In this document: one piece after another, positions 35,000 through 62,558 of the stretch | Layout: each line of letters starts with the position of its first letter | Position numbering within the stretch: the stretch's first letter is position 1 | IMG/VR virus record: IMGVR_UViG_3300045988_160053 | DNA: 64,000 nt | From: a virus | Direction: 5' to 3' (one strand) | Notes under the pieces: generated by a model | Database searches by the model: none | What the model was told of the DNA's origin: nothing | Seen by the model: the letters and a program-made list of their open reading frames with translations, nothing else | Position numbers and translations under genes: made by a program

Positions 35000-35023
35000 A
35001 AGACTGAAAGGAAGGTGAGGCTT

Positions 35024-38266: not shown

Positions 38267-39594
38267 AAAGAACAGAACAATATTCGGACCAGATAGCTAG
38301 ACTTTATCCATCTAAGAAGGTAAAAACCGATGACGGACAAAGAATATTAACACAGAGTATCACTTTTCAAGTAACTGATGATTGCAACCTTGCGTGTCTA
38401 TATTGTTACCAAGGACACAAAGGAAAAAATCGAATGTCGTTTGAAACAGCTAAGAAATTCTTTGATTTAGTTGTATCAGGTGAAAAAGGTTTTAAATCTT
38501 ATATCAATCCAGAGAAATCTCCTGGATTGGTTGTAGATTTCATTGGAGGAGAACCCTTTCTTGAGATAGAGCTTATAGATCAAATCTGTACTTATATTAT
38601 GGATAAACTCATAGAGTTGGATCATCCTTGGGCCATGAAAACTATGTTCTCTATTTGTTCAAATGGTGTTTTATACAGGGACGAAAAAGTACAAGCATTT
38701 CTTCGTAAATGGGCCAATAGATTATCTTTCTCAGTTACTATTGATGGGAATAAAGAATTACATGATTCCTGCCGAGTTTTTCCAGATGGTGGTCCAAGTT
38801 ATGACATAGCTGTCGATGCTGCGTCAGATTGGATGAAACGTGGAAATCATATGGGAAGCAAGATCACAATTGCTCCGGGCAATATCAGCTTTCTATACGA
38901 TGCTATTAAGCATATGGTCGATCTTGGATATGATGAAATCAATGCCAATTGTGTATATGAAAAGGGTTGGACACCTGTACATGCAACTGTTCTTTATGAT
39001 CAAATGAAACGTATATCTGATTATTTCTTGGAACAGAATTTTGATTTTGAACGTGATTTCTTCTGTTCCCTTTATAATGAAGACTTCTTTCAGCCTAAAG
39101 ATCCTGATGATTTACAAAGTTGGTGTGGAGGCGTTGGTAATTCAATGATTGCTTGCGATCCTCAAGGTCGCATATTTCCATGTATCAGATATATGGAATC
39201 TTCTCTTAATGGAGAGCAAGAACCGTACTCTATTGGTGATGTAGATAATGGTATAGGATGCACAGAATGTTATAAATGCAGAATTAATTGTATGGCAAAA
39301 ATAGATAGAAGGACACAGAGTACAGATGAATGTTTCTATTGTCCTATAGCTGCAGGATGTTCTAATTGTTCTGGTTATGATTATCAAGTGAATGGTACTC
39401 CTGACTCAAAAGCTACTTATATATGTGTTATGCATAAAGCTCGTGCTCTTGGGAATCTGTATTTCTGGAATAAATATTATAGAAAAAATAATATGAGTAA
39501 GCGAATGAAAAACTATGTGCCAGATGAATGGGCGCTTGAGATTATTTCTGAATCAGAACTTAATATGTTGAAAGAACTTGAAAGAGAGGATTAA
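38263..39594 (+). CDS. radical SAM / SPASM-domain peptide maturase
   Basis: CNLACLYC (CX3CX2C, nt about 38383-38406) within FQVTDDCNLACLYCYQ. GGEPFLE motif. C-terminal Cys cluster WCGGVGNSMIACDPQGRIFPC … CTECYKCRINC … CFYCPIAAGCSNC, typical of SPASM auxiliary Fe-S domains. Confidence 0.85.
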   Translation: MKRTEQYSDQIARLYPSKKVKTDDGQRILTQSITFQVTDDCNLACLYCYQGHKGKNRMSFETAKKFFDLVVSGEKGFKSYINPEKSPGLVVDFIGGEPFLEIELIDQICTYIMDKLIELDHPWAMKTMFSICSNGVLYRDEKVQAFLRKWANRLSFSVTIDGNKELHDSCRVFPDGGPSYDIAVDAASDWMKRGNHMGSKITIAPGNISFLYDAIKHMVDLGYDEINANCVYEKGWTPVHATVLYDQMKRISDYFLEQNFDFERDFFCSLYNEDFFQPKDPDDLQSWCGGVGNSMIACDPQGRIFPCIRYMESSLNGEQEPYSIGDVDNGIGCTECYKCRINCMAKIDRRTQSTDECFYCPIAAGCSNCSGYDYQVNGTPDSKATYICVMHKARALGNLYFWNKYYRKNNMSKRMKNYVPDEWALEIISESELNMLKELERED

Positions 39595-39612
39595 AAGCCT
39601 CTCTTTTTTATT
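39583..39612 (+). terminator. intrinsic terminator closing the fibre/maturase operon
   Basis: AGAGAGG (39583-39589) pairs with CCTCTCT (39598-39604). 8-nt loop, then TTTTTTATT. Overlaps the maturase stop codon. Confidence 0.6.
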
Positions 39613-39634
39613 GACTAAAAGGAGGCTTGATATT

Positions 39635-42550: not shown

Positions 42551-43759
42551 TTAGCTGATTTTTTGGAATGCTCTGCACGTATTTATATCGTTCATCGTAT
42601 TTTCTAACAACTTAATGTCACTCATTTTTTTATCACTTAAAACTTCTGTATAGATATCCATGGTCATCTGAATATTTGTATGTCCAAGATATGATTGTAC
42701 TGTTTTTGGTGGGATTCCTGCCTCAAAACAGCGTGTGGCAAATGTGTGTCTAAATGTATGCGCACTAAATTTTGGCATCAGAGGCTGATTTTGAGATGCT
42801 CTAATTTTATTAACATTATTTCTTACTGTACGTATCGAACTACCAAGTACTTCATCCATCAAGGGTCTATTATTTCTTGTCACGAAAAGGAGTTTGCCAA
42901 GAACGTCAGAGTCATAATCAATCGGTGGCAATGTATTGAGCTGCTGTACTTGATCTTCAATTGCTTTTCTACATATGGAATTCATCGGTACGGTTCTTAT
43001 ACTGGATTTAGTTTTTGGTATGCTGATTTTGTATCCTAAAAAATCATCTTTTGAAGATTTTCTAAAATAAGTTAAAGTTTTAGTAACATTTATAGTATTA
43101 TTTTCAAAATCAATATCATCTAAAGTAAGCGCTCTCAATTCTCCTGAGCGAAGTCCTGTATTAACTGCGACAACATATAGATTATAATAGAAGCATCCTT
43201 TCGCCATAAAGAAGAAATCTCTTTGATCCTCACGGGATAAGGTAACGATTTTTCTTCTGTCAGTTCCGATTATTTTTATGCCTTTTGCCGGGTTTTTAGT
43301 ACATAAATCATTATCCATAGCATAAGAGAATAAATCGCACAAAACTGTACGTATATTATTGACTGTACTTTTATGTAACCTTTTACCCAGTCCGTTAAGT
43401 AAATCTGTTACCATCAATTTAGTAATTGATGACAATGGCAATCTGCCTAGCACAGGTTTTATATAGCAATGGTATGTACGTATATATATTCTAATTGTAC
43501 TTGGCTTCAGAACAGGTTCTTTATATACCCTCATCCACTTTTCATACCACTGATCCAAAGTCATATTGGAGTCTACTACATTATTTTTACTGTAATTATC
43601 TACAACTTCACTCATTAATGCATTTTTAACTTCTTTTAAAGTTATCCCGTATACACATCTACGCTTCCCGAACCTATCTGTAAATCGGGCTTGATATCTA
43701 CCGTCCTTTCTCTGTGAAATGCCCTTTCCGAGTTCTTTACCTTTTAAATCTTTTCCCAT
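42551..43759 (-). CDS. int: tyrosine recombinase (phage integrase)
   Basis: C-terminal catalytic region …LRSGELRAL… / …AHTFRHTFATRCFEAGIPPKTVQSYLGHTNIQMTMDIYTEV (R…HxxR…Y pattern). N-terminal SAM-like domain. RBS GAAAGGATG. Confidence 0.9.
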   Translation of the reverse strand: MGKDLKGKELGKGISQRKDGRYQARFTDRFGKRRCVYGITLKEVKNALMSEVVDNYSKNNVVDSNMTLDQWYEKWMRVYKEPVLKPSTIRIYIRTYHCYIKPVLGRLPLSSITKLMVTDLLNGLGKRLHKSTVNNIRTVLCDLFSYAMDNDLCTKNPAKGIKIIGTDRRKIVTLSREDQRDFFFMAKGCFYYNLYVVAVNTGLRSGELRALTLDDIDFENNTINVTKTLTYFRKSSKDDFLGYKISIPKTKSSIRTVPMNSICRKAIEDQVQQLNTLPPIDYDSDVLGKLLFVTRNNRPLMDEVLGSSIRTVRNNVNKIRASQNQPLMPKFSAHTFRHTFATRCFEAGIPPKTVQSYLGHTNIQMTMDIYTEVLSDKKMSDIKLLENTMNDINTCRAFQKIS

Positions 43760-47773: not shown

Positions 47774-48322
47774 TTAATTCTCCTTTATGCTTTCCATAAG
47801 TTCACTACGAATTTCATCATACATTTTATGTAACTTAGGATTCACAAAAGTCATCCATTCTCGCCGTTTATCCTGTATCATAAGTGCTCTCAACATAGTC
47901 CCAGAGATGGGTAATTCTTCACGATTAATGATTAATTCGGTTGTGTTCTTTAAATCTTTCTTGTCGAACCATCCACTCCGGCTATCATCATTACCATAAA
48001 TCATTACATCTGGATTTTTATAAATATACCGATCCACATTTTGAAGAAGATATCTACCCCAATCTGGTGTGATATCATTTTCATCAGTAAGGTCTGATAA
48101 TGCATAAATCATAATATTCGGATTATCACCATACACTTCACGTATCATCTTGATTCTAGTATTGACATTCAAAGGATTACGTTCTGTCCCGCATTCTTGA
48201 GCGCTACCGACGAGAATAAGCATTCGATCACAAAGTAATAACCCAGTATCAATAAGTTTTTCATGGCCTTTATGGAATGTTTGAAAACGTCCACAAACAA
48301 GCCCAACATCATATGGTTTCAT
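47774..48322 (-). CDS. nicotinamide-nucleotide adenylyltransferase (NadM/NadR-type NMNAT)
   Basis: GLVCGRFQTFHKGHEKL (GRFQxxHxGH cytidylyltransferase signature of NMNATs) and ISGTMLR near the C-terminus. Trimmed to ATG 48322 (RBS AAAGGAGAAG), which abuts the upstream stop. Confidence 0.8.
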   Translation of the reverse strand: MKPYDVGLVCGRFQTFHKGHEKLIDTGLLLCDRMLILVGSAQECGTERNPLNVNTRIKMIREVYGDNPNIMIYALSDLTDENDITPDWGRYLLQNVDRYIYKNPDVMIYGNDDSRSGWFDKKDLKNTTELIINREELPISGTMLRALMIQDKRREWMTFVNPKLHKMYDEIRSELMESIKEN

Positions 48323-48323
48323 A

Positions 48324-48587
48324 TTATTTCTTCTCCTTTTTAATTCCAAGCATATGAATAAATGGTATTAAGAACACAATGAAAAGAACGATATATATAA
48401 TAATTGCTGCAGGAATAGTAAATATAATTACGATAGCAGTATATATTTTCCCAAACCAGTTTTTATTTTGGAGCCACGTTTTATATTCTCCTATTGGTAA
48501 TAATTCATCTATCGCGCAATTAACCACTAAAACAATTGTGAAATAAATTTCGATTAAAAAGAATGATGTAAATACTACGTCATCCAT
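48324..48587 (-). CDS. membrane protein (87 aa)
   Basis: Three hydrophobic segments. Its start overlaps the nadE stop by 1 nt. Confidence 0.55.
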   Translation of the reverse strand: MDDVVFTSFFLIEIYFTIVLVVNCAIDELLPIGEYKTWLQNKNWFGKIYTAIVIIFTIPAAIIIYIVLFIVFLIPFIHMLGIKKEKK

Positions 48588-49348
48588 TATGCTACCTCCA
48601 CTTTTAATCCAGGATTAAATACCGGGATCTTCTCTGATTTAAAAAGACATCGTTTGTGCATTAAATCAATCTTAGCTTTTACATCCAGATCGTCAATCTC
48701 TCCTGTACGAAGATATCTGTCCAGAACTTCATATGGGAATCCTAAATTGTCCTCATCTGTCTTTTCACACAAGCCATCTATCGGGATCTTTTCAATAAGT
48801 TCTGTAGGAAGCAATAATTCATATCCAAGTTTTTTAACTTCATATACAGTTAATTTTCCTAACGGACTAAAATCACCTGCCGAATCACCATACCTGGTTT
48901 CATAACCGACATATGATTCTGAAAGATTACATGTATTTGCTACTCTTCCATTACAAGACTGAGAGACAGCATATAATGTAGACATTCTAATACGTGCCGG
49001 AAGATTTATTTTTGTCTGTTCACTGATCTCGATTCCTGAGCTTTCGAGCCTTGCCAGTACACTTCGAACCGTATCTCCAATATTAATCTCGTAAGACTTA
49101 ATATTAAGAAATTCACAAAGTTTGTACGCAGCATAAATATCTTTCTGCTGACCCTGTGGCATCAGTACACCAATTACACGATCTTTTCCAAGAGCTTCTA
49201 CACAAAGTGCTGCTACTACAGAAGAATCTTTTCCGCCAGAGATTCCTACAATTGCATTGCATCCGGGACCATTCTGATCGAACCAGTCTCTGATCCACTG
49301 TACAATTTCATTCTTGAGTTCTTTAACATATCCATTGTAATATTTCAT
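48587..49348 (-). CDS. nadE: NH3-dependent NAD+ synthetase
   Basis: PP-loop GISGGKDSSVVAAL, NLPARIRM, GYETRYGDSAGDFSPL and the C-terminal EDNLGFPYEVLDRYL motifs in NadE order. Confidence 0.9.
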   Translation of the reverse strand: MKYYNGYVKELKNEIVQWIRDWFDQNGPGCNAIVGISGGKDSSVVAALCVEALGKDRVIGVLMPQGQQKDIYAAYKLCEFLNIKSYEINIGDTVRSVLARLESSGIEISEQTKINLPARIRMSTLYAVSQSCNGRVANTCNLSESYVGYETRYGDSAGDFSPLGKLTVYEVKKLGYELLLPTELIEKIPIDGLCEKTDEDNLGFPYEVLDRYLRTGEIDDLDVKAKIDLMHKRCLFKSEKIPVFNPGLKVEVA

Positions 49349-49349
49349 C

Positions 49350-49709
49350 TTATAATCCTCCTAAACAATTAATATATTGTTTAACATTGCCATTATCATA
49401 TGTCTTTGTAATCAATACGGCAGACACTGTTTGTCCTATTCTTCCATGATATTTACGATATGTACTTTCATCACTAAGTGAATATTCCACTCCGTTATAG
49501 TCTACCGTAATTTCATACTCGGCATAATCTGTCCGAAATTGTGGAACATGATTAATCATACCTGTAAAATGAACTTCTTTCGGCTTATAGTATTCATTAA
49601 CAATTTTGACTTTTACACTTTCTTCTTTCTTATCAATACATTTAGCGCATCCAGTCAACATAAATACACTGATAAGCAGAAGAATTAATATAGTAGCTGC
49701 CTTTTTCAC
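49350..49709 (-). CDS. lipoprotein (119 aa)
   Basis: Signal peptide plus lipobox (…VFMLTGC). GTG start with a GGAGGAATCAAA RBS. GTGA overlap with the upstream stop. Confidence 0.55.
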   Translation of the reverse strand: MKKAATILILLLISVFMLTGCAKCIDKKEESVKVKIVNEYYKPKEVHFTGMINHVPQFRTDYAEYEITVDYNGVEYSLSDESTYRKYHGRIGQTVSAVLITKTYDNGNVKQYINCLGGL

Positions 49710-50134
49710 TTTGATTCCTCCTGCAGTTTCTTTCTTACTTTCATAAGAATTCTACCAAGCCTGTTTTCTCCAATACCATTAACAGTTCCCCAAGTTGTAT
49801 CTCCCCATGTATTTCCTTCTTCCAAATGTTCATTACCTGTAGCAAGTAACTTTTCCTTAAGGTCTGGATTCTGAGTGAATTTAGCCAGTACGATTTCATA
49901 CATTACTTTATCTTTTACTTCTTCCCAATCTGATCTCAGATCAATCTTTCTACCTGTTGCCTTTGCCTCTGATGGGCTAGCTTTAGAAAATAACTGGAAT
50001 CTTAGTCTACGATTCTTTGTTTTCTGCGCTTGAAAAGCTGCTTCATTATTTGTATAGTCCCATCCGTTGTAACTTACCGGTGCCATATAAAAGTTACTTA
50101 AAAAGTAATAATCTCCAGTAAAACTATTAATCAT
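49706..50134 (-). CDS. NADAR (YbiA/DUF1768) domain protein
   Basis: FTGDYYFLSNFY…NNEAAFQAQK…WGDTTWG is the NADAR pattern. Trimmed to ATG 50134 (RBS GGAGGG, 8-nt spacer), directly after the upstream stop at 50136. Confidence 0.75.
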   Translation of the reverse strand: MINSFTGDYYFLSNFYMAPVSYNGWDYTNNEAAFQAQKTKNRRLRFQLFSKASPSEAKATGRKIDLRSDWEEVKDKVMYEIVLAKFTQNPDLKEKLLATGNEHLEEGNTWGDTTWGTVNGIGENRLGRILMKVRKKLQEESK

Positions 50135-50135
50135 C

Positions 50136-50684
50136 TTAAATACCCTCCATTGCTTTCCACTGTTTTCTTCTCTTACTCTGCATCTTCCAACCAGACACTT
50201 TGGATCCTTTCTCATAATCCCATGAATCTATTTTTCTTTTTGGTTTTATAGGCTTGAGAGTAATACCATATTCATTTCTTACCTCTACAATCTCTTCTGG
50301 TGTAATACTTTTACGCTGATCCGGCTCTGTTGAAGCCCGATGAATATTCCATCCATGATGTTTATGATATGTACGATAATATTTCTTCTTATATTTCTTA
50401 GTAAGCTGATGAAAGTCTCGTACATTACCATAATCATCCATAATCAAATATCTGTGATATTCTTTTGTTGTCGTAAAGTAACATCTACCGTGCATGTATT
50501 CATCTTCAAAATAATTAAACTTATTATAAAATTGTTTATCGTATTTTGTTTCGAAATATGTATACACTTCTTTAGTACCTGTTAGATATCCGAGATATTC
50601 CCATGGTAACCATTTATATTTGGCCCATTCGCAATGATATTCAACTACTTTTGTTCTTTGCATATAAATATGATATTCTCTCAT
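50136..50684 (-). CDS. hypothetical Tyr/Lys/His-rich protein (182 aa)
   Basis: Track ORF. No motif. Confidence 0.6.
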   Translation of the reverse strand: MREYHIYMQRTKVVEYHCEWAKYKWLPWEYLGYLTGTKEVYTYFETKYDKQFYNKFNYFEDEYMHGRCYFTTTKEYHRYLIMDDYGNVRDFHQLTKKYKKKYYRTYHKHHGWNIHRASTEPDQRKSITPEEIVEVRNEYGITLKPIKPKRKIDSWDYEKGSKVSGWKMQSKRRKQWKAMEGI

Positions 50685-50693
50685 ATAAAACTC

Positions 50694-50978
50694 CTACTGT
50701 CCTTTATGTCTTGACATATCGACTGTTGTTTTAAAATATTTACCAATTGTTGCAATTGTTGCACAAATAACAGGGATCATTGGTTTCGTAAATCTAGTTG
50801 TATTAAATATGATATTTAGTCCATTAACCAATGCGTCTCCTACAAAAAATTTCAGTATACATCCACCTATGTAAGCAAACATAAATGATAATGCCGGACT
50901 AATAACAAGAGTGAAAATCGCAAGGATGATTACTGTAAACGCACCTATTCCTTCTAATGTATTATCTTTTCTGTTCAT
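50694..50978 (-). CDS. membrane protein (94 aa)
   Basis: Three hydrophobic segments. 4-nt overlap with the macro-domain gene. Confidence 0.55.
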   Translation of the reverse strand: MNRKDNTLEGIGAFTVIILAIFTLVISPALSFMFAYIGGCILKFFVGDALVNGLNIIFNTTRFTKPMIPVICATIATIGKYFKTTVDMSRHKGQ

Positions 50979-51475
50979 TCATCCAGCCTCCATAATTCCA
51001 CATCATAATCTTTAAGTTCCTCTTCAATGATTTTATAAACCACTTCCCAGTCTGCTCCCCCTCTTACACAACCAATCTTATACGGAAGTGCTACTGAGGT
51101 TCTACAAAGATCTTTTCCTTCTAGTCCATTTTTTTCACGCCATACTCCAAAATGTTGCGAAATATATCTTAAACCATCTCTAAAAGCTTCAAGATCTGTA
51201 TACTGTTTACCATCATATCCATATTTATTTTGTGCGAATAAAGACAATACAATTTGACCTCTATCTTTCAATAAATATGCATCACATGTTCCGAGTAGTT
51301 CTTCCGGCTCGAACTTACAAAATTCACAAAACTTTCTATAGTGTTTATAAATGCCTTCATCATAATCTCTTAATGCTTTAGCAACTCCAGATCCCATAAC
51401 ACCCTGGCAGTTAACCTGATGAATTATAAAATCTGTCTTTGCATTAACGATATTACCTTCAATAATTTTAATCAT
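50975..51475 (-). CDS. macro domain protein (ADP-ribose binding/hydrolase)
   Basis: MIKIIEGNIVNAKTDFIIHQVNCQGVMGSGVAKAL is a typical macro-domain N-terminus. Trimmed to ATG 51475 (RBS GGAGGA, 5-nt spacer). Confidence 0.8.
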   Translation of the reverse strand: MIKIIEGNIVNAKTDFIIHQVNCQGVMGSGVAKALRDYDEGIYKHYRKFCEFCKFEPEELLGTCDAYLLKDRGQIVLSLFAQNKYGYDGKQYTDLEAFRDGLRYISQHFGVWREKNGLEGKDLCRTSVALPYKIGCVRGGADWEVVYKIIEEELKDYDVELWRLDE

Positions 51476-51485
51476 TTGCTTCCTC

Positions 51486-51902
51486 CTATATAAAATTCTG
51501 AAATGTAAATTTCTCGCCACAAGAACAGATTACTTCTCCAACAGTTCCAATTGATGTTGGTGTAAAGCACCATGTAAGAGAGCCGCCTATGCAACCATGT
51601 CCCATTGCTCTCTGTTCCATAGTTTTCAAACCATGTTTCTCAGCATCATGTTTTAATTCCCACTCTCTGATTTTCTCTTGTTCTTTTTCTGAAATTGGAA
51701 ATCCTCTATACAGATCCTCTTTCGCTTTTTTCAGTTCTGTTTCCATTCTCTGCATTTCAGAATCTTTATAATGCTCATCTTTGAGTTTCTTGTTTTCTTC
51801 TTCTAAGTATTTAATTCGTTTTTCATAAGTATCTGCTTTATCAATAATTCCTTGACAAAGATCTGAAACAGAATCGGAAAAATATGTCTTTTTCATTTTC
51901 AT
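51486..51902 (-). CDS. hypothetical coiled-coil / Cys-containing protein (138 aa)
   Basis: Track ORF. C-terminal …GHGCIGGSLTWCFTPTSIGTVGEVICSCGEKFTF. Confidence 0.6.
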   Translation of the reverse strand: MKMKKTYFSDSVSDLCQGIIDKADTYEKRIKYLEEENKKLKDEHYKDSEMQRMETELKKAKEDLYRGFPISEKEQEKIREWELKHDAEKHGLKTMEQRAMGHGCIGGSLTWCFTPTSIGTVGEVICSCGEKFTFQNFI

Positions 51903-51903
51903 C

Positions 51904-52443
51904 TTAAATTTCCTTTACTAAATATTTCACTGGAACATTTTTAGTCAGCCAAACTCCATTTTTAGATAAGTAAAATTTGTATCCATCTTTGTACATCTGT
52001 TCACTATTGATAGAATAAACAACTTCTTTACCATGTCTTTTGCCGACAGCTTTGGCGGTTTCAACATCTTTTGACAAATGAACATATAAACGACTTTTAG
52101 GAATCAGTCCGTTCTGATCAATAGACGCTATATATTTCTCGCCGGTTCCATGATAAAGAATTCTAGGCGGCTCTTTCTCTTCCAGTTCTACATCTACCGG
52201 AATTGAATGTCCCTGATTCGCTCTGATCAATGTTTTGTCATCATTGAAAGAATATCGCTGCTTATTGTCAGTCCGTACAATTTCCTCTAAAATTTCTTTG
52301 TTGAATCCGGGATTGTTTTTAGCAATGCCCTGAATTAGTTCTTCTACATTCGCCCATCCGTGTTCATTTAAAGTAATATTGATCACTTCAGGTTTATGTC
52401 TTAATATAAGACTTATATATCTACTAATACTTTGTAAATTCAT
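51904..52443 (-). CDS. kptA: RNA 2'-phosphotransferase (Tpt1/KptA family, NAD+-dependent)
   Basis: [13 protein letters not shown]…GWANVEELI…RYSF…IRANQGHS…LYHGT…VHLS, the canonical Tpt1/KptA order. Confidence 0.85.
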
Positions 52444-52448
52444 TCTCT

Positions 52449-54395
52449 TTACTCCATAAATGATGAAACATGTACGGTTACAAAATCGCTATGTGCACGA
52501 ATATAATCCAAAGTTTTTACTGTATCCTCTACAATTGCAATCTGAGATGGCTTAAGCCCAAGCTTTTGCTGCAACGTCTGAAGCACAGTAAGTTTTTCTG
52601 TTTTTTCTAAAGTGAAATAGATATTATCATCCGGAAGATTATAGTTGTTTTTGATAAAAGCTCTTTTGCCGGGGATCTCACTAGAAGGACTCTTTGAACA
52701 AGTATATACTTTATCAATACCTTTCTTTTGAATAAACTTTTGCATTAATTTAATCGGACGCACATCTTTATACGGATTCTCACCGAAAGCTACAAGTCTA
52801 TCCCATTCATCATCAGTCATACTATGACTTAATTCAGAAAACTCATACGGAGCAAGTACTCCATCTACGTCCATTACTACAATCACATCATCTTTTAATA
52901 AATAATCTGTAATTTTACTTATCTTTGTTTTTTTGTTTCCTCCGTTTAATCTTTCTCTAATGTCTTCAAATGTTTCTTTATTGCAAGCTTCCCCATCTAC
53001 AAATACAGTTCTTAATGTTCCATTACCAAATATACTATCATATCCGTCTTCACACTGTAATTCTCCATTGTCATCGTAATATATACAACAACACCCCTTA
53101 TGAGATTTTTTCAAATGACTCGTATCGGTTTTTGGATCTTTATAGATCATAATTGGCTCGCCATTGACAATTCCATAAGTGGCTTTCATAGCAATACCAA
53201 ACATATCTCTGGTTACAACAACCATATGTCCATCAGGCTCTATAACTGCTGAGAAGCAAAATGCTCCGACTCCGAATACGATATTGTTTGCAGCAAATCC
53301 TTTTTTCTTCAATTCTTCCCATACCTGCTTTACATTATTAAGAGTACATCCGTCCCCATAAATAATTCCAATATGAGAGTCAAGTACTTTATATCCTTTG
53401 CTATTTACTGTTCCGCCGAATGTATTCCAAAGTTTCTCAATGGTCTTTACGGCAATTTCTACCATATCTCCGGAATCTGGACGAACCAGAAGTTTGCCAT
53501 TATGCTGCATGATTTCTTTTTTACAAGCCGGAAGAATATTATCAATCATATTCCAGTAATCATAAGTATCAGATACCATGCTAAAAGATGCATTAGGATA
53601 TAGTTCCGTAAGTAGTCTTTTTACAAATGTGATTTCATCACCGTCTACTGCATAATTTGAAGCCATAACTGAATGTTCTGTTGATACAGCGCCAATTCCA
53701 ATCTTTTCAGCCCAGCAACAAGCATCATAATATGTATCTATATAATCAATAGCAGGAATTGTGCTTGTCTTATCAAATGATAATAACCAAGCAGATGAAC
53801 ATCTCACGGCCTCTTCCATACAAGACATTCCTCTCATACCAAAGTCTGAGCAGGCCATTTCAGGTCTTAAAAAGTCATCACAGGTCATTTTATAGTAGTC
53901 GTTTGCAAGTTCTCTATACATATGACCAATTGTTGCATGAGCACATGGTTTCCAGAGTTCAACCTGCAGAATACATTCGATCCACTGTACTACCCAGGCA
54001 AAATCTGGATGTGTATTTGTAATTTCGATGCATGGGATGCCCATTGGTACTAATGTTCCCTCCGGAATAGCACGTATCCGAATTGGAAGATAACCTAATT
54101 TATGAAGTTTCATAATAGGCTCTAGGTCATAATTGTTTCCTAACTGTATATCCATACTGTATTTATATGTATGTTCAACTTCTGCTGCTGTTAATTCAAA
54201 AAAGTTTTTATTAAAATAATCAACCAGATACTCTTCAATAAATGCCTGTAAACCAAAGAATACCATTTTGTTTTGATTCTTAAGCATTGATCTTCGTGGG
54301 GTCCAGTAAGATACTAATTGATCCAGTCCTTTCGGATAGATTTTATTATGTATCTGTTTATATGTATCGCTTAATAGGATTGCTAAAGTATTCAT
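52449..54395 (-). CDS. nicotinamide phosphoribosyltransferase-family enzyme (NAMPT/NadV-like) fused to a C-terminal HAD (NT5C-like) domain
   Basis: NAMPT-family motifs: [56 protein letters not shown]. The C-terminal about 165 aa (nt about 52452-52940) carry [14 protein letters not shown] (DxDG[VT]) and IAIVEDT, which are HAD motifs I and IV. Trimmed to ATG 54395 (RBS GAGGGAGA). Confidence 0.85.
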
Positions 54396-54412
54396 AATAT
54401 TCTCCCTCAAGT

Positions 54413-54703
54413 CTATTCTTCTGTATAACAAGTATTTGTCACTTTTTTATATACATCCTCGTAAAGTTCCTGTTTATCGCCATTGTATGTATATTCAGCA
54501 TAAATACCATCACCAGAAACCGTAGTAGAAGCAAGACATTTGTAGTTCTGTAAAGTCTTGCACGACCAAACAATAAATACATTTGATAAATTAATTGGCT
54601 TAATTGCATTTGGACCTTCGTGAATCATACAGCTATTGTTATACCATTCAACTAATTTCTTTTTGCATACATCTTGAAAATGTTCCATTCCTGTAATAAT
54701 CAT
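54413..54703 (-). CDS. hypothetical protein (96 aa)
   Basis: Track ORF. TAATG overlap with the upstream gene. Confidence 0.55.
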   Translation of the reverse strand: MIITGMEHFQDVCKKKLVEWYNNSCMIHEGPNAIKPINLSNVFIVWSCKTLQNYKCLASTTVSGDGIYAEYTYNGDKQELYEDVYKKVTNTCYTEE

Positions 54704-55092
54704 TATTTTTTATTCTCCTCTTTATCGTTTACAACTTTGTCAATCTGGTCAGTAATATAATCAACTACATCTTTGCCGGTTTTCCCAATTGCTTGGATGT
54801 TATCTGTCGTTACATTATCTAGCACAAGCATTGTATACATGGTATCTTTTGATGGAACTGTTGTAAAAAGTAAACTACTAACACAAAGCCAGATAACTGA
54901 TTTCTTTAAATACTTTTTACATGTAACAATAGGTTTTTCATCCTGTCTATAATCCATAGAACTCAAAAGCCAAATAATTGATAATACCACCGCTGCACAT
55001 CCAAGTAAAATTGATGCAATACCAAATAACTCCCTTAAATCATCAAATAAATCAATTAAATAAATCAACCACGGGCTAATAATCGGTTTCAT
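54703..55092 (-). CDS. membrane protein (129 aa)
   Basis: Three hydrophobic segments. RBS AAGGAGGC. Confidence 0.55.
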   Translation of the reverse strand: MKPIISPWLIYLIDLFDDLRELFGIASILLGCAAVVLSIIWLLSSMDYRQDEKPIVTCKKYLKKSVIWLCVSSLLFTTVPSKDTMYTMLVLDNVTTDNIQAIGKTGKDVVDYITDQIDKVVNDKEENKK

Positions 55093-55101
55093 AATGCCTC
55101 C

Positions 55102-55905
55102 TTATCTAAACCTCTCAACAAGTTCAATCTTAGGACTTTCCAGATTTGTCAGAATCGTATCTGTCGTATAAATCTTCTCAATCAATCCATTATTTTTCAG
55201 AAGTTCTCCTTCATAAATAGTATTCTCACAATGAGTAATATAAAGATAAATCTTACCTACACCGGCCTCTTTCAGCTTTTTAGCACTATAATAAAAAGTA
55301 CCACCTCTGCTGCAAATGTCATCTACAATAAGAATGTCTTTACCTGGTAATTGATCAATTTCACCAGATAAATCTAAACCTTTAATCTCTCCGGTCTCCC
55401 AATCTCTATTCTTAATACCGAAAGCATATGGAAGATGTACTGCTGAAGAATATCGCTTCATGGATCCCGCATCCGGATAAAACATCATAAGGTTATTACT
55501 CGCAATCTTCTTAACAGCATCCTCAATCATTCGATTCGGGGATTCTACATGTACTTTATTAAATAATGCGGCAGATACATCAGAATGCGGATCTAAAACT
55601 TCTACTTTTCCAAAATGTAATGAATTAATAGTCTGAGCAAAATATTTTAAAGTAAATAATTCGTTCTTATGCTTAACTCGGTCCATACGTGCATCTGGGA
55701 TATAAGGCATATATAAATTAGGCACTACTCTATGATCCCAACAATATCTAGTAATATATTCAACTGCTGTTAACTCTTCCATTGATTCAAAGAACCATTC
55801 AATATTATCTCTGCGCCATCCTCCGATGGGTGGGAGATTCTTAAATAAGAATGTCCCATCCGGATATTTATCAAGTTTGATTTCTACGTCGTTTAATTTA
55901 ATCAT
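55102..55905 (-). CDS. ribose-phosphate pyrophosphokinase-like protein (PRPP synthetase, or ADPR-pyrophosphate synthetase of the NARP1 type)
   Basis: YMPYIPDARMDRV (compare PYxxYARQDR) and ILIVDDICSRGGTF (PRPP/PRTase loop). About 45 aa shorter than cellular Prs. Starts directly after the upstream stop. Confidence 0.7.
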   Translation of the reverse strand: MIKLNDVEIKLDKYPDGTFLFKNLPPIGGWRRDNIEWFFESMEELTAVEYITRYCWDHRVVPNLYMPYIPDARMDRVKHKNELFTLKYFAQTINSLHFGKVEVLDPHSDVSAALFNKVHVESPNRMIEDAVKKIASNNLMMFYPDAGSMKRYSSAVHLPYAFGIKNRDWETGEIKGLDLSGEIDQLPGKDILIVDDICSRGGTFYYSAKKLKEAGVGKIYLYITHCENTIYEGELLKNNGLIEKIYTTDTILTNLESPKIELVERFR

Positions 55906-57012
55906 TTAGTTCTCCTCACGTTCAAACAATTTTAATTTCCAGTTATCTTTGAATATTTTATGTATTTCATAAAGAGATATATTAGACTCGCAATATTCAT
56001 TCATATGAGTCATAGCCAATGTCTTTCGACATGGGATTCCAGAGGTTTTTATGTCTGCTTGACATCTTTCATATAGTTCTTCAACATTTAACTTCCCATA
56101 TCTCAAAGTATCCTGATGCGGATTTGGAACATTGGTTAAATCTTTTATGTCTGGATTAATCTCTTCCTTATTACATTCAGTTGGGAACGCACCGGCTCCA
56201 TGTCTAGTCATATATGTACGTGTCACATAACAAGCTTCTATATTAATCTCATCAGTCCAATTTACAGACTTTATAATTCTTGCAGGATTTTTAATACCAG
56301 TGTTGGATGGAGTAAGATGTGGGTAATATTCAGTATTATTTTGATCTAAAAGAAGCCCCTGCCCATTTTCAAATACTATGATATCGTATCCATCAAGTAA
56401 TTGATCATCATTCACGACATGTATGTGCGACATCATAAAATCAAAATCTTCATTGTAATGGTCTTGAAGCCCAGGATTTTTGAAATGATTAAATAATTCT
56501 TCTTCCTGCTCAGATAACGTAATTCCCATGCGCTTGAACATATTCATATAATATGACCATGACGATGAATATGAAGTAATATGTTTTTTATAGCGTTGAA
56601 TTGTATTATAAATACCCATTCCACAGCTTCCGTGTTTATTATTACCGCGACTTCGCTCAATAATTTGATTTGCCATCATATCAAGAGGATTCGTAATCAT
56701 ACATTGTTCATGAACGTACACATAAGGTTCCCATCCTAATTTCTTCAACTCTTCCCATTCTTCCCTAAATACCAGAGGATTTAAAATAAAATCCTCCGGT
56801 AAATAAGTATCTGCTCCGTTTAATGTTCCAGAGCCGAAATGATGAAAGACATGCCGGGTTCCGTCTGATTTTAATACTGTGTGTCCTCTTTGAGCACCGC
56901 CATTTGAACACACAACGATACAGTTATCTGCATTTTTAGTATAATAATCTGTTAATTTACCCTTGCCCTCGTCACCAAAGTTTGCTCCGATGACAATTTT
57001 TATATCTTTCAT
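55906..57012 (-). CDS. short adenylosuccinate synthetase homologue (PurA/PurZ-like)
   Basis: IGANFGDEGKGKLTDYY (P-loop GDEGKGK) and GGAQRGHTV (compare GHNAGHT). At 368 aa it is markedly shorter than bacterial PurA. The GTTxxGIGP element is replaced by HGSCGMGIYNT. Confidence 0.7.
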   Translation of the reverse strand: MKDIKIVIGANFGDEGKGKLTDYYTKNADNCIVVCSNGGAQRGHTVLKSDGTRHVFHHFGSGTLNGADTYLPEDFILNPLVFREEWEELKKLGWEPYVYVHEQCMITNPLDMMANQIIERSRGNNKHGSCGMGIYNTIQRYKKHITSYSSSWSYYMNMFKRMGITLSEQEEELFNHFKNPGLQDHYNEDFDFMMSHIHVVNDDQLLDGYDIIVFENGQGLLLDQNNTEYYPHLTPSNTGIKNPARIIKSVNWTDEINIEACYVTRTYMTRHGAGAFPTECNKEEINPDIKDLTNVPNPHQDTLRYGKLNVEELYERCQADIKTSGIPCRKTLAMTHMNEYCESNISLYEIHKIFKDNWKLKLFEREEN

Positions 57013-57024
57013 AAGTTATTCTCC

Positions 57025-57924
57025 TTACCAAACAATAGCTCCTGATTCATCTGTCTCTGCAGAAATTACAGTGGATGAGACTACTACAGGTTCATTATTT
57101 TCTGCAGCCGCAACTACAATCTTTACAATTTCATCTGCAATATCATCAAGACGATTAATGGTCCTAAAATGATTATCATCAAGATACTCTGAAAAAGACT
57201 CAACTATTCCTCTCTGGTCATATCCATCACGATGATTTACATTAATGTGATAAATATCAAATTTCTCAGATGTTTCCATATATAAATCTTTAGTTTCTAC
57301 ATCGGCCTGAAGCGTATCGCCAGTTGTAATTCCTAATCCAGAGCGTCGTCCTGATACTGGTAAGTACGGATTAAGACGTTCGTCCCCAATTGTGATAATT
57401 ACGCCTTTTTTACCCCTATTCCAACAATCAAGTTTTGTATGACGAGATCCAAAATACCAAGCAGCAGTATATGACTCGAAACAATTACCTCCGCCGCCAA
57501 ATTCAAAATAGATTTTATCAAGCTGCTCCGCAATTCTAATATCGGATTCAAACTGTGATGCCTGAATTGGATAATTATCATATGCTAAATCACCAATACC
57601 CATAATCATAAATTCTACATCTTTAATCTGACCATATAATTTTGTCATGATTTCATTAAGTCTTTTTGCAATTTCTACTGCGGTCTGTCCCATAGATCCT
57701 GTGACATCCAAAGCTAAAATGACTGGTAAAGTATTCGGATGCTCTTCATTATCACAACATTCTCTAATAACACCTTTAGGATCGAGTGCTGCATCAATAT
57801 TTTTTGCTTTAAACATTTCCTGATTAGAATAACTTCCTGTAACTACTCCTCGTGAATCAGTGCCATATCCTTTTGATGTTGAATAACTTACAAAACTTCT
57901 AGTATCCCAACTTCCGCTTCCCAT
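57025..57924 (-). CDS. von Willebrand factor A (vWA) domain protein
   Basis: MIDAS-like LPVILALDVTGSMG followed by an alternating beta/alpha pattern. RBS GAGGAGGA. Confidence 0.7.
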   Translation of the reverse strand: MGSGSWDTRSFVSYSTSKGYGTDSRGVVTGSYSNQEMFKAKNIDAALDPKGVIRECCDNEEHPNTLPVILALDVTGSMGQTAVEIAKRLNEIMTKLYGQIKDVEFMIMGIGDLAYDNYPIQASQFESDIRIAEQLDKIYFEFGGGGNCFESYTAAWYFGSRHTKLDCWNRGKKGVIITIGDERLNPYLPVSGRRSGLGITTGDTLQADVETKDLYMETSEKFDIYHINVNHRDGYDQRGIVESFSEYLDDNHFRTINRLDDIADEIVKIVVAAAENNEPVVVSSTVISAETDESGAIVW

Positions 57925-57926
57925 AA

Positions 57927-58544
57927 TTATTCATCCTCCTCTAAATCATCTTCACTATCTTCTGTGTCTGTATCATCCATGCTAAAATCAAACATACCGT
58001 CAAATACATCACCAATACCACCATTCATCATCATAAATGGCATCATAGCACTCATTGGATTACTGTCTGTTCCAGTTCCGGTACCGGCCGCTCCATTCAT
58101 CATCTGGGACATCATCATATATTTAAAGATTTTATTTGCACTATTCTTATCTTTTCCAAGATTACTTCCGAACATAGATACAATTTTCCCATAGAAATAA
58201 GTATTGCCCATAAATACATGGCGCTCCGGCAGAATTGTTTCAACTGTAGAATCTTCATAATTGATTACAGTGATCTTTGTTTTATCTGCTTCGATGACGC
58301 ACTTAGGTTTGCCATTTACAAGGATGATGTCTCCTTTAGCCACCTTATTTGTTGGAATGACGAAGAAAAAGTTTTCATCTACTCCTGGGAATACAAAATT
58401 TCCACAGTTTGTGAGCTTACCGGATTTAACATTGTAACTCTTATATCCATTAGAGGTTTTTACTGCGATATTACCACTCATAGATAACTTACACATTCCA
58501 CTACCAATTTTTCCAAACATTCCATTCATAAAATTATTCATCAT
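57927..58544 (-). CDS. hypothetical Met/Gly-rich protein with poly-acidic C-terminus
   Basis: Trimmed to ATG 58544 (RBS GGAGGG, 7-nt spacer). …MMMSQMMNGAAGTGTGTDSNPMSAMMPFMMMNGG…DDTDTEDSEDDLEEDE. Confidence 0.55.
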   Translation of the reverse strand: MMNNFMNGMFGKIGSGMCKLSMSGNIAVKTSNGYKSYNVKSGKLTNCGNFVFPGVDENFFFVIPTNKVAKGDIILVNGKPKCVIEADKTKITVINYEDSTVETILPERHVFMGNTYFYGKIVSMFGSNLGKDKNSANKIFKYMMMSQMMNGAAGTGTGTDSNPMSAMMPFMMMNGGIGDVFDGMFDFSMDDTDTEDSEDDLEEDE

Positions 58545-58567
58545 TTTAATTCCCTCCATTGTTTAAT

Positions 58568-59122
58568 TTAATTTCTATTGATTACATTAATCTGGCAGCT
58601 TTCCATTACATCAAGAGCCGCTTTATGCTTTTCCGGTGTTGATCCTGCGCAGCATGATGCATCAACTGTGATTTTTGCCTCTGGATAATAAGTTTTAATC
58701 AAAAGAGCGTTTGTAATAACACAGATATCTGTGCATATGCCAATAATTTCAATATCTAATAAAGAAGAATCATATGCGATACCAAATGTTTCTTCCCAAT
58801 CCCAGTCATCAAATCCAAAAGTAGATTTACAACATACCATAAAACTATCGAGATTTTTATAATCAAGTTCATCAACAATTTCCCAACCTTTAGTACCATA
58901 CATACAATGTTCAGGAAGTTTTCTGCCCTCTGAAGTATCTGCGTAATCTGAATGATGAGTATCCTTTGTAAGAATTACATAATCCCCATTATTCTTATAT
59001 TCATCAAATTTCTCTTTTACATTCGGAATAATAGCCTGAGCTTCCGGTGTACCAAGTGAACCGGTTACAAAATCATTCTGTACATCAATCACAATCAAGA
59101 CTTTCTTTTTCTCTTTTTCCAT
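58568..59122 (-). CDS. pncA: nicotinamidase (isochorismatase family)
   Basis: LIVIDVQNDF (catalytic Asp), DTHHSDY…LPEHCMYGTKGWEI (metal site pattern) and IIGICTDICV (catalytic Cys). Trimmed to ATG 59122 (RBS GGGAGAA). Confidence 0.85.
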   Translation of the reverse strand: MEKEKKKVLIVIDVQNDFVTGSLGTPEAQAIIPNVKEKFDEYKNNGDYVILTKDTHHSDYADTSEGRKLPEHCMYGTKGWEIVDELDYKNLDSFMVCCKSTFGFDDWDWEETFGIAYDSSLLDIEIIGICTDICVITNALLIKTYYPEAKITVDASCCAGSTPEKHKAALDVMESCQINVINRN

Positions 59123-59446: not shown

Positions 59447-59905
59447 CTATTCCTCCAGTCTATACAAAATAATTGGTCCACCTTCAATATAGAACGTCGC
59501 ATTGTAATCTATAAATTCTCTAGCCTCATCTTCTGTCATATCCTCATGATTAACTAAAGATTCAACCATTTTTTCGTAATCATATATTGCTCTATCATCA
59601 GAAGAAATACCAAGAAACGCATCTTCATAAGATGGATTTGTAAAAAATATCGTTCCCTCGTACCCGGCCTCTAACAATAACCGTTCTGTTTTTGATACTT
59701 GGTCTTCATATATATTATCTGCATGTGCTTCAATGTCATCATGTAACGTCTCTTCTGGGTAATCTATAAGAGAATCCATAATATAAGAAGAAGTAATCAT
59801 ATTTAAAGCCTTTTCTTCTGAAATTTGATATTTTCTTTGTAATACAGCTTGCAATCCTTCAATGTAACCCTTAACACTTTCTGTAAGTTCTGATATATCT
59901 ACCAT
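59447..59905 (-). CDS. hypothetical acidic protein (152 aa)
   Basis: Track ORF. 1-nt overlap with the upstream stop. Confidence 0.6.
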   Translation of the reverse strand: MVDISELTESVKGYIEGLQAVLQRKYQISEEKALNMITSSYIMDSLIDYPEETLHDDIEAHADNIYEDQVSKTERLLLEAGYEGTIFFTNPSYEDAFLGISSDDRAIYDYEKMVESLVNHEDMTEDEAREFIDYNATFYIEGGPIILYRLEE

Positions 59906-60642
59906 TATGCGATCCTCACAATCTGTTCATATATAACTATATCTTTTATTGTTATTGCTTTATTGTCGTGGTAATGCCCACACAACCAACGCTTATAATC
60001 AACATTGCGCCTTATTTCTTCCAGATAATTTGTTAACTTATCCGGCTTATATAGTCCATGTGATAATAATGCTGCTGTAGAAGAAGCTGTACAATGTGTT
60101 AAGATAAAATCTACCTTATTATTATGTTCTGCCAGATTCTTTATACCCTCATCCATCTCTTCTTGATTTGGCATTTCTCGTTCCCACCATGAAATATGAT
60201 TGATTCGGTACATTTTATCCGGATCATCCCTCCATTCTTTTACTCTTGGATCGTCAATCTCTAATACTCCATCTGAAATATCATGACTTGAAGCTCCTCC
60301 AAAGGTAAAGAATTTTAATCCGTCTATATCAAATACCTGTCCTCTCATAAGATGAATTATCGATGGTTTAATAAAATGCACCTTACCACCATGCCATTCT
60401 TCTACCGGATAAGAATCTAATATATCGTAATTCTCATGATTTCCGTCAATAAAGAGTGTTGTGAAATGTTTCTCTTCAAGCCAATTCAGGTACCACCTTT
60501 GTTGCGGTGAATCTCTCCATATTCCAAAATCTCCAAGAATTATCACATAATCGTCCTTCGACATCTCACGCTGTTCGGGAAAAGAATCCATATTAACTCT
60601 ATGGATCCAATCCCCATGCGTATCTCCAGTTACCCAAATCAT
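59905..60642 (-). CDS. calcineurin-like metallophosphoesterase
   Basis: WVTGDTHGD, ILGDFG, GNHEN and GHYH motifs in order. ATG 60642 is preferred over the track's TTG 60657. Confidence 0.8.
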   Translation of the reverse strand: MIWVTGDTHGDWIHRVNMDSFPEQREMSKDDYVIILGDFGIWRDSPQQRWYLNWLEEKHFTTLFIDGNHENYDILDSYPVEEWHGGKVHFIKPSIIHLMRGQVFDIDGLKFFTFGGASSHDISDGVLEIDDPRVKEWRDDPDKMYRINHISWWEREMPNQEEMDEGIKNLAEHNNKVDFILTHCTASSTAALLSHGLYKPDKLTNYLEEIRRNVDYKRWLCGHYHDNKAITIKDIVIYEQIVRIA

Positions 60643-60797
60643 GTCCGTGATCCCCAAATGAAGTAGTTAACACTTAAAATAAATAATGATATTGCAGAAG
60701 GCCAATAACCATCCGGAACAACATTATTCATAACAACGCTCATGCATATCACACTGATAATGAAAAACACAATATTTTTTAATATCGTTTTAATCAT
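60639..60797 (-). CDS. 52-aa membrane micro-protein
   Basis: My translation: MIKTILKNIVFFIISVICMSVVMNNVVPDGYWPSAISLFILSVNYFIWGSRT. TAATG overlap upstream and ATGA overlap downstream. Confidence 0.45.
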   Translation of the reverse strand: MIKTILKNIVFFIISVICMSVVMNNVVPDGYWPSAISLFILSVNYFIWGSRT

Positions 60798-61595: not shown

Positions 61596-62558
61596 TTATT
61601 CTCCTTTTACACTTGCTGTTCCTGATGTTAAATCACCTGCATCAACAATTGTTGCAGCATTTCCACCTTGTACCTTCGGCACATCACCATTCCACTTATC
61701 AATCTTCTGTTTCTCAATAAGCTCTGGAGTAAGAGACTCAGCAATTTTCTTATTTGCTTCTGCTTCAGCATCCGCTTTAATTCTTGTTGCTTCCGCTTTA
61801 CCTTCAGCAGTGATCTTCGCCTGTTCAGCCTCAATAGCGGCCTTTTCTTTATCCTGTTCTGCTGCAATAAGAGCAACTTCTTTATCTTTATCTGCCTGTA
61901 CCTTTGCAGTCTTAGCTTCAATATTTGCAAGTTCCAGTTCCTGCTGTGCATTTACTTTCTTCTGAATAGCTGCCTGAGTTTCATCATCGGTTGAAATCGA
62001 AGTAAAGTTTACAGTATCAATGATAATTCCATATGGCTCAAATTTCTTTTTCAAGTATTTGTCAAGTGCTTCATTCAGTTCCTGGCGTTTATCACCAAAT
62101 ACATCTGTTACCGGATACTTAGCAGTTACTTCCTGTGTCCACGCTTTCATCTTTGGTTTAATGAAAGTATTTTTTACACTTTCACCGGACTGACCTTTAA
62201 ATCTTGTAAATACATCAGCAACTTGATCCTGATCGAACTTATAAGAGAATTCCAAATCAACAAGAAGCTGTTTTCCATCAGCAGTAGGTGTTTTAAAACT
62301 CTCATCTTTTGGTGAATCACCTTTATCTTCTGAAGTCAGATAAGACTGTTCAATACCAATTGAATACAGTGATGTTTTTACTGTAGGTGAAATCAAATGC
62401 CATCCCTGTGGAAGAGTATCATTTGAAATTCCGCCGTTCATCTTGTATTCTACAGCTACATAACCAGCAGGAACTCTTACCGTACACTTTGCTACACAAA
62501 TTAATCCTGCTACAATTATTACTGCTAATCCAACCCCACCTAAAAATCCTTTTCTCAT
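61596..62558 (-). CDS. SPFH/band-7 (prohibitin/flotillin-like) membrane protein
   Basis: N-terminal TM, an SPFH core (…VPAGYVAVEYKMNGG…VDLEFSYKF…IIIDTVNFTSI…), then an Ala/Glu/Lys coiled coil. Confidence 0.8.
   Translation of the reverse strand: MRKGFLGGVGLAVIIVAGLICVAKCTVRVPAGYVAVEYKMNGGISNDTLPQGWHLISPTVKTSLYSIGIEQSYLTSEDKGDSPKDESFKTPTADGKQLLVDLEFSYKFDQDQVADVFTRFKGQSGESVKNTFIKPKMKAWTQEVTAKYPVTDVFGDKRQELNEALDKYLKKKFEPYGIIIDTVNFTSISTDDETQAAIQKKVNAQQELELANIEAKTAKVQADKDKEVALIAAEQDKEKAAIEAEQAKITAEGKAEATRIKADAEAEANKKIAESLTPELIEKQKIDKWNGDVPKVQGGNAATIVDAGDLTSGTASVKGE

Follow-up and report, generated by a model that had tools for sequence, protein, structure and literature searches.

A phage gene island for NAD+ rebuilding that probably represents a conserved nicotinate-based variant of NARP1

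Depletion of NAD+ is a common anti-phage strategy of bacteria, and three pathways by which phages rebuild NAD+ (the NAD+ reconstitution pathways NARP1-3) have been described. The present work concerns an island of NAD+-related genes in a stretch of viral DNA of 64,000 nucleotides (the window) from the IMG/VR record IMGVR_UViG_3300045988_160053. A preliminary description of the window had named five enzymes on one strand: the nicotinamidase PncA (58568-59122), a protein resembling phosphoribosyl pyrophosphate (PRPP) synthetase, Prs (55102-55905), a transferase of the NAMPT family (52449-54395), the NAD synthetase NadE (48587-49348) and an NMN adenylyltransferase, NMNAT (47774-48322). All five open reading frames (ORFs) are present at these coordinates on the minus strand and belong to the families named. 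They lie in a part of the window, about 42.5-64 kb, that is coded on the minus strand throughout. The unusual richness of this phage NAD+ gene set around the Prs-like/NAMPT-like pair was also borne out, and the same block holds further genes that had not been listed, namely those for a macro-domain protein, a Tpt1/KptA homologue, a NADAR-domain protein and a PurA-like protein. The observation is probably that of a single conserved nicotinate-based variant of NARP1, a reading that is directly testable.

The NAMPT-family ORF encodes 648 amino acid residues with NAPRTase and NAMPT_N domains (phrog_448, 562 bits). Residues 1-488 (52932-54395, minus strand) form the transferase domain. The protein scored 393 bits against the Namat structures 9w5x and 9w5w, 319 bits against 9ke8, 197 bits against human NAMPT and 156 bits against the Nampt of Xanthomonas in a PDB comparison; 9w5x represents the Namat of phage SpβL1 and contains its published motif GSFTYQYNTRD (PMC12774641). 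Identity with the KVP40-like NadV of phage D525 is about 28% (178 bits).

The Prs-like protein (minus strand; phrog_619, 230 bits; Pfam matches under the gathering score) matches 1,505 phage records, including the Adps of phage ICP1, with which it shares 41.7% identity (117 bits, as against 52 bits for the best cellular Prs structure). The PDB search returned no solved Adps structure, the best matches being cellular Prs, and the Adps residues were judged from the functional residues published for ICP1 Adps (PMC13586617) and from an alignment with the Adps of ICP1, FADO and K408 and with E. coli Prs. The ICP1 residues F18 (as Tyr), R87, H121, D161, K185, D212 and D213 are retained, and F92 is not conserved. 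K185 is placed on a hairpin K-x-R-D-x-x-T-G-x-I, where E. coli Prs has DKRRP-RANVSQ, and the PP loop reads DDIC...GGTFYY. Such an enzyme would convert ADP-ribose (ADPR) and ATP to ADP-ribose pyrophosphate (ADPR-PP) and AMP. The Adps and Namat genes are separated by two small ORFs in the window and adjacent in relatives, which lies within the limit of 10 genes used for NARP1.

Since the transferase scores favour Namat structures and the Prs-like protein retains Adps residues, the pair is, as judged from the sequences, of the NARP1 type, Adps plus Namat, and not Prs plus Nampt. The preliminary description had left this point undecided and had proposed phylogenetic placement; the placement of the transferase on the Namat branch, given below, together with the Adps features settles it for NARP1.

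The window Namat departs from the canonical enzyme in its pyridine pocket. Asp215 of SpβL1 Namat (D219 of human NAMPT), which hydrogen-bonds the nicotinamide amide, is replaced by Ser (Ser211 in window numbering), and the pocket residue Ala242 is also replaced by Ser (Ser238). In NAMPT, nicotinamide specificity is set by Asp219, and Ser214 of human nicotinate phosphoribosyltransferase (NaPRTase) is structurally equivalent to it (PMC4442680, PMC7096376). Relative to SpβL1, the window Namat also has a deletion of 13 amino acids after RPDSGD and an insertion of 10 amino acids in the adenine selectivity clamp helix (SCH), with Met at the position of R40. It fails the published SCH signature G-S-aromatic-T/S-aromatic-Q/N-aromatic-N/V-T-R-D with the SCL stacking residue. 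The catalytic His, R192, R306, the stacking Phe/Tyr and the TRD motif are kept.

The extent of this replacement was assessed with 150 representatives at no more than 50% identity, obtained by an exhaustive HMMER search and aligned with the window protein and 10 references. Among the 161 sequences, 98 have Asp/Ala at SpβL1 positions 215/242, 30 have Ala/Ser, 24 have Ser/Ser, and nine have other residues or could not be aligned there. Further columns separating the classes lie on the pyridine-pocket strands (SpβL1 187, 213, 239-241 and 304). Among the ribose-phosphate contacts tabulated, which did not include D308, G360 and D361, the residues R192, R306 and R399/D400 are kept, and A362 and S391 are changed. 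In a neighbour-joining tree with 155 sequences and a Nampt-like root, the window transferase fell inside the Namat radiation and all 53 variants in one pure clade. As the variants form a single clade, they are one ancient subfamily and not the result of recurrent substitution. The same topology ruled out that the variant pocket and its neighbours PncA and NadE came together in independent events.

Early-branching members of the variant clade (Phass-1, P0138 and many Clostridium loci) retain the clamp motif GIGSYTYQYNTRD and an adjacent Adps gene. This argues that ADPR-PP is still the donor in the clade. The SCH insertion of the window Namat is a later feature within it. About one third of the diverse Namat-like representatives sampled are of the variant type, which occurs mainly in phages and genomes of Firmicutes from the human and animal gut. 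A NARP1 search that relied on homology only would count the variant loci and overlook a chemistry that is probably different. One protein of 488 amino acids (P0026), which matches the window Namat with 95% identity across 77% of its length, combines PF04095 with the isochorismatase family PF00857; it is a hybrid of PncA and Namat or else a chimera created by assembly.

The gene neighbourhoods of the two classes differ. In the genome collection, where genes within 7 kb of Namat were counted, 68 variant loci included 60 with PncA, 48 with NadE and 61 with Adps. All five canonical loci had Adps, and none had PncA or NadE. Six more canonical loci, those of ICP1, FADO, K408, P0140, P0143 and P0161, also have neither gene, which brings the total to 0/11. 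Over 100 related viral contigs and some 70 loci of bacterial or archaeal genomes share the core order PncA - Adps - Namat - (macro) - NadE, which recurs down to a Namat identity of 33%. Among the 115 relatives from IMG/VR, in which Namat is 53-98% identical to that of the window (the contigs reach about 420 kb, and complete ones mostly measure 90-190 kb), the order holds in every case with sufficient flank. It often takes the form of a tight operon, as in contig L052 with gene starts at 8415, 8921, 10001, 11451 and 12136. The gut phage Phass-1 in GenBank has overlapping genes for a nicotinamidase, Prs, NAMPT, an ORF of 139 amino acids and NadE; its Namat is 33% identical to that of the window and has Ala/Ser at 215/242. 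The same partners accompany other variant representatives on the metagenomic contigs L121, L122, L124 and L125.

The loci L141 (1-5300) and L142 (6986-10156), which represent a sub-lineage, carry the variant Namat (hereafter Namat*), macro, NadE and NADAR genes and lack both Adps and PncA; in L141 these are immediately preceded by an NMNAT gene. Where Adps and PncA have gone, NadE thus remains as a partner, as would be expected if the products of Namat* are deamidated. The layout of L141 (NMNAT, Namat*, NadE) resembles a deamidated NARP2.

The nicotinamidase itself (minus strand; Pfam Isochorismatase, 79 bits) has a possible upstream start at 59233. Its best PDB match is the nicotinamidase of P. 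horikoshii (1ilw/1im5), with which it shares the Asp/Lys/Cys triad and the Asp/His/His metal site. NadE (minus strand) is of the NH3-dependent type (Pfam NAD_synthase, 179 bits) and passes TIGR00552 with 179 bits against a cut-off of 63.65. Both enzymes are otherwise rare in phages: of 50,697 phage records, 48 contain NadE and 16 PncA, as against 1,505 that contain Adps-like proteins and 2,046 that contain homologues of Namat or Nampt. No separate PncB or NadD was detected among the ORFs scanned at 44.5-62.5 kb. The Preiss-Handler branch, which the preliminary description had considered available to this phage, is therefore incomplete, and PncA and NadE are not the independent branch that had been supposed. 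They are conserved partners of one Namat subfamily in which the nicotinamide-binding Asp is replaced, and so the genes look like one integrated pathway through deamidated intermediates.

It is suggested, with a probability of about 0.55 and on the strength of sequence comparison, that the island is an expanded form of the conserved operon PncA - Adps - Namat* - (macro) - NadE, a variant of NARP1 that proceeds through deamidated intermediates. In the first step, PncA would convert the nicotinamide released by NAD+ cleavage to nicotinic acid and NH3. Adps would form ADPR-PP from ADPR and ATP, and Namat* would then join nicotinic acid and ADPR-PP to nicotinic acid adenine dinucleotide (NaAD) and pyrophosphate. 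In the last step, NadE would convert NaAD, NH3 and ATP to NAD+, so that the ammonia is taken back up. The macro protein probably converts ADPR-1''-phosphate to ADPR, as Adpp does in the pathway NARP1-AP. The presence of PncA and NadE makes sense if Namat* uses nicotinic acid, because a nicotinamidase would starve a Namat that uses nicotinamide. Likewise, NadE would have no role if Namat made NAD+ directly. The scheme is closed, and the two enzymes that it could do without, PncB and NadD, are precisely those not found.

An ordinary NARP1-AP with helper enzymes has to be weighed against this scheme. In such a system, Namat* would make NAD+ from nicotinamide and ADPR-PP, and PncA and NadE would boost the Preiss-Handler route of the host, with its own PncB and NadD. 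The presence of Adps, a Namat-clade enzyme and a macro domain of the Poa1p class is in keeping with this explanation, as is the conservation of the catalytic His, R192, R306 and the stacking Phe/Tyr. It leaves unexplained, however, that the amide-binding Asp has given way to Ser or Ala in every member with PncA/NadE neighbours and in none without them. Moreover, a Namat that used nicotinamide would lose its substrate to the nicotinamidase of the phage, and the rarity of NadE and PncA among phage records, when set beside the abundance of Adps-like genes, also speaks against it. This explanation seems quite improbable.

Several points weigh against the deamidated scheme. In 20 of the 68 variant loci, no NadE turned up within 7 kb; some of these lie at contig ends, and bacteria could have a chromosomal NadE at another site. 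The link with PncA and NadE is one inherited trait of a clade with a single origin and does not represent repeated events. Ser214 alone does not fully account for the nicotinate specificity of NaPRTase (PMC4442680). In the window Namat, which lacks the clamp signature owing to the 10-residue SCH insertion and the change of R40 to Met, preference for ADPR-PP is less certain than in the early-branching members. NadE may use nicotinic acid mononucleotide (NaMN) in place of NaAD, as its sequence does not discriminate between the two substrates. Finally, the deamidated detour would cost one more ATP with no explained benefit; it may be speculated that hosts with an active nicotinamidase leave nicotinic acid, and not nicotinamide, available.

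The NMNAT-like protein bears on a further explanation. It is a stand-alone protein of 182 amino acids of the NadM/archaeal type (minus strand; CTP_transf_like, 43 bits) with the motifs GRFQTFHKGH and ISGTMLR and without a Nudix domain. All 13 of its PDB matches are NMN adenylyltransferases. Its top NCBIfam matches are archaeal, NadM and NadR NMNATs, although at 62.7 bits against a cut-off of 127. The window-like subgroup, L052, L053 and L112 are the only viral-contig relatives in which NMNAT was found; outside these, its homologues adjoin the variant Namat in L123 (NMNAT-Adps-Namat) and L141 (NMNAT-Namat). NMNAT is thus a variable accessory. In the window it might open an additional entry, in which a side activity of Namat* would make NaMN from nicotinic acid and PRPP, NMNAT would convert it to NaAD and NadE would complete the synthesis; the same entry is conceivable in L123, L141, L052/53 and L112. 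Canonical Namat also uses PRPP in vitro (PMC12774641), and Namat* may likewise accept PRPP besides ADPR-PP.

If PRPP were the only donor, the island would be a booster of the Preiss-Handler route with no ADPR chemistry: the Prs-like protein would supply PRPP, Namat* would make NaMN, NMNAT or the NadD of the host would form NaAD, and NadE would finish. The exchange of Asp for Ser does mimic NaPRTase (PMC4442680), and this explanation would also make use of the in vitro PRPP activity of Namat, the NMNAT of the window, the altered adenine clamp and the arrangement of L141, where NMNAT, Namat* and NadE occur without Adps. The Prs-like protein, however, groups with Adps (117 bits with ICP1 against at most 52 with cellular Prs) and has the Adps hairpin and PP loop. 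The operon also includes a macro domain, which handles ADPR derivatives, and the early-branching members of the clade keep the adenine-clamp motif. In addition, NMNAT was undetected in the flanks of most operons, and it is the one step that ADPR-PP chemistry makes unnecessary. On balance, a purely PRPP-based route is judged unlikely.

As to purpose, the deamidated variant of NARP1 would keep NAD+ available during infection of Lachnospiraceae or other Clostridia, including against defences that cleave NAD+. By analogy with NARP1, a counter-defence purpose seems reasonable. The same chemistry might instead serve housekeeping, recycling the ADPR and nicotinamide left by NAD+ consumers (such as ADP-ribosyltransferases or the phage's own Tpt1) or raising NAD+ for replication. 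Many genomes assigned to Clostridium and other Clostridia contain the module. On the bacterial-looking metagenomic contig L121 (128-4614), a gene with a weak match to an NrtR-like winged-helix domain is followed in turn by those for Adps, PncA, the variant Namat and NadE, and the module adjoins a chemotaxis receptor gene. In cells, the module may be under NAD- or ADPR-responsive regulation. In the window, Tpt1 and NADAR genes stand among those of the island, and in Bacteroidota Tpt1 is again met with next to canonical NARP1. On the other hand, canonical NARP1 and NARP1-AP overcome NAD+-depleting defences in experiments (10.1101/2024.02.11.579819; 10.64898/2026.01.28.702374), and many of the genome matches may be prophages. 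A housekeeping purpose is considered possible but rather doubtful, and the two purposes are compatible with each other.

The deamidated variant can be compared with the systems already described. With the NARP1 of the Bacillus phage SpβL1, the E. coli phage Bas63 and the Vibrio phage ICP1, it shares adjacent genes for a Prs-fold Adps and a NAMPT-fold Namat, the catalytic residues of Adps, the conserved Namat core (His, R192, R306, TRD) and the logic of rebuilding NAD+ from ADP-ribose. It differs from them in the Ser residues at Asp215 and Ala242, the SCH insertion and the loop deletion of the window Namat, in having PncA and NadE as near-constant partners of the variant, and in a predicted transferase product that is NaAD and not NAD+. 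NARP2 of phage KVP40 consists of Nampt and a bifunctional Nmnat/Nudix enzyme, and the window phage likewise combines a NAMPT-family enzyme with a putative NMN adenylyltransferase. Its transferase belongs to the Namat clade, however, its NMNAT is without Nudix, and the predicted intermediates are NaMN and NaAD. The preliminary description had seen in the window the ingredients of three routes at once; this could not be upheld, as a KVP40-type Nampt is not present. NARP1 and NARP2 occurred together in no phage of a survey of 2024 (10.1101/2024.02.11.579819); the present phage combines Adps and Namat with an NMNAT, though without a KVP40-type Nampt. NARP3, which pairs a PnuC-like transporter with a bifunctional NadR-like enzyme, is not recognisable here: no PnuC match was obtained among the island ORFs scanned, and the NMNAT, with 182 amino acids, is too short for a ribosylnicotinamide-kinase domain.

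The Preiss-Handler pathway (PncA, PncB, NadD, NadE) shares with the window its first and last enzymes and the intermediate NaAD, whereas its PncB and NadD steps are predicted to be replaced by Adps and the variant Namat, with NaAD formed from ADPR in one transfer. There is also some likeness to the Francisella route, which uses the NMN synthetase NadE* and NadM. The window NadE is short and single-domain, its nearest structure is 3fiu, the NaMN-amidating NMN synthetase of F. tularensis, and the NMNAT is of the NadM type. Unlike in that route, NMNAT is missing from most related operons, and NadE is equally similar to the conventional archaeal enzyme 2e18 (110.9 bits for 3fiu against 109.7, nearly a tie).

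Literature searches, which did not cover most subscription journals, found no description of a nicotinate or NaAD variant of NARP or of the ADPR-PP pathway. The chances appear evenly balanced that Namat* carries out an as yet undescribed reaction, from nicotinic acid and ADPR-PP to NaAD, and that with PncA, Adps and NadE it constitutes a "deamidated NARP1", closed and ammonia-neutral, with a wide distribution among the phages and prophages of gut Clostridia and among bacterial genomes. The addition or substitution of NMNAT would then lead to a deamidated branch resembling NARP2. If true, this would be a fourth biochemical solution to the rebuilding of NAD+ by phages. A new enzyme specificity is predicted, and the presence in gut phage genomes of NadE and PncA is accounted for. 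Little phage counter-defence has been tested in gut Firmicutes.

The macro-domain protein (50975-51475, minus strand) and the C-terminal part of the Namat ORF gave only sub-threshold Pfam matches, and both were then assigned by structure prediction and Foldseek. The macro model (AF2, pLDDT 90.1) belongs to the Poa1p/DarG/TARG1 class, with matches to the DarG macro domain (E 2e-11), Poa1p (E 1e-10) and TARG1; homologues of the protein carry PF01661. It is 32% identical (E 5e-17) to a "phosphatase" encoded between Adps and Namat in the Vibrio phage K408. In NARP1-AP of the Vibrio phage Gary, the macro protein Adpp converts ADPR-1''-phosphate to ADPR and defeats NAD+ phosphorolysis of the RES type (10.64898/2026.01.28.702374). 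The comparison with NARP1-AP was made with K408, whose order Adps-macro-Namat is the layout described for that system, and not with the sequence of Gary. Like NARP1-AP, the present operon includes a macro protein of the Poa1p class. Unlike there, its gene follows Namat instead of standing between Adps and Namat: it is directly between Namat and NadE in compact relatives, and the third gene after Namat in the window, where Tpt1 and one further gene intervene; the distance from the NARP1 genes used to recognise NARP1-AP is two genes. By this analogy, the macro protein is a candidate ADPR-1''-phosphate phosphatase (Adpp-like); alternatively, it may have a DarG-like role in DNA de-ADP-ribosylation.

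Residues 489-648 of the Namat ORF (52449-52931, minus strand) form a phosphatase-like domain of the HAD superfamily (AF2 pLDDT 91.8), which matched MDP-1, KdsC and the HAD domain of Lem4 in Foldseek. A DxDGVL motif, a Ser, a Lys and an ED motif are invariant. In 41 relatives the HAD protein is encoded by a separate ORF overlapping the stop codon of Namat, the junction in most relatives being an overlapping stop/start (ATGAGTAA). The fused form occurs in the window and at least seven further contigs, and databases contain many such proteins of 646 amino acids; both forms are common in metagenomes. The fusion results from an insertion of 7 nt (AAAAACA) and a change of ATG to ATA at this junction (window 52925-52960, minus strand; L007 11440-11480). 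An assembly artefact was ruled out by the same insertion and the same ATG change at the DNA level in at least one independent contig, L004, and by the recurrence of the fused ORF in the other contigs and the database proteins.

The Tpt1/KptA protein, an NAD+-consuming RNA 2'-phosphotransferase (51904-52443, minus strand), was recognised by Pfam PTS_2-RNA (162 bits) and NCBIfam NF002014 (255.7 against a cut-off of 239). The compact operons of the relatives lack it. In Bacteroidota (L200-L202 and L209, from Chitinophaga, Ekhidna and metagenome-assembled genomes of Bacteroidota), Tpt1/KptA lies between or beside Adps and a canonical Namat. The link between Tpt1 and NARP1 is thus recurrent, and no discussion of it was found in the NARP literature examined. 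The NADAR-domain protein (49706-50215, minus strand; Pfam NADAR 98.6 bits, TIGR02464 78.4 against a cut-off of 73.7) belongs to a family linked to NAD and ADP-ribose, and its presence varies among relatives.

Three genes lie between PncA and Adps (55906-58559) only in the window-like subgroup, and this insert is probably not part of the NAD pathway. It comprises a PurA-like gene (55906-57012, minus strand; PHROG "PurZ" family, 299 bits), a phrog_2971 protein with a vWA-like DVTGSMG motif (57025-57924, minus strand) and a gene without assignment (57927-58559, minus strand). The first was considered as the PurZ of a Z-genome and rejected: it fails the NCBIfam models of PurZ (49 against 300) and PurA (105 against 402), keeps GDEGKGK and has PDB matches to PurA only. 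Two genes upstream of PncA, a calcineurin-like metallophosphoesterase is encoded (59905-60657, minus strand), and beyond it an SPFH/Band 7 protein (61596-62558, minus strand).

The rest of the window is that of a phage: its tail genes are very large, and it encodes a Dit homologue, an endolysin and an integrase. The relatives of the window are viral contigs of IMG/VR. The integrase (42551-43759, minus strand) is located at the point where the coding strand switches. The phage is probably large and, because it encodes an integrase, probably temperate. The island had no match among GenBank phages by megablast. The closest genomic copies belong to Ruminococcus sp. AM36-2AA (77%), Roseburia, Lachnospiraceae bacterium A4, Thomasclavelia cocleata, Faecalimonas and Agathobacter, and more distant ones to many Clostridium isolates. 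Since both the closest and the more distant copies sit in such genomes, the host is probably a member of the gut Lachnospiraceae or related Clostridia. A tRNA scan of the window found no genes, and a scan of 47-61 kb for promoters and terminators gave sites no more numerous than in shuffled sequence. Beside the integrase lie genes for a radical SAM protein and the endolysin of 575 amino acids (38263-41305, plus strand). The region 32042-37465 (plus strand) has a GC content of 0.42-0.43, as against about 0.35 elsewhere, and encodes two paralogous large proteins with repeated phrog_1589/5811/7388 domains.

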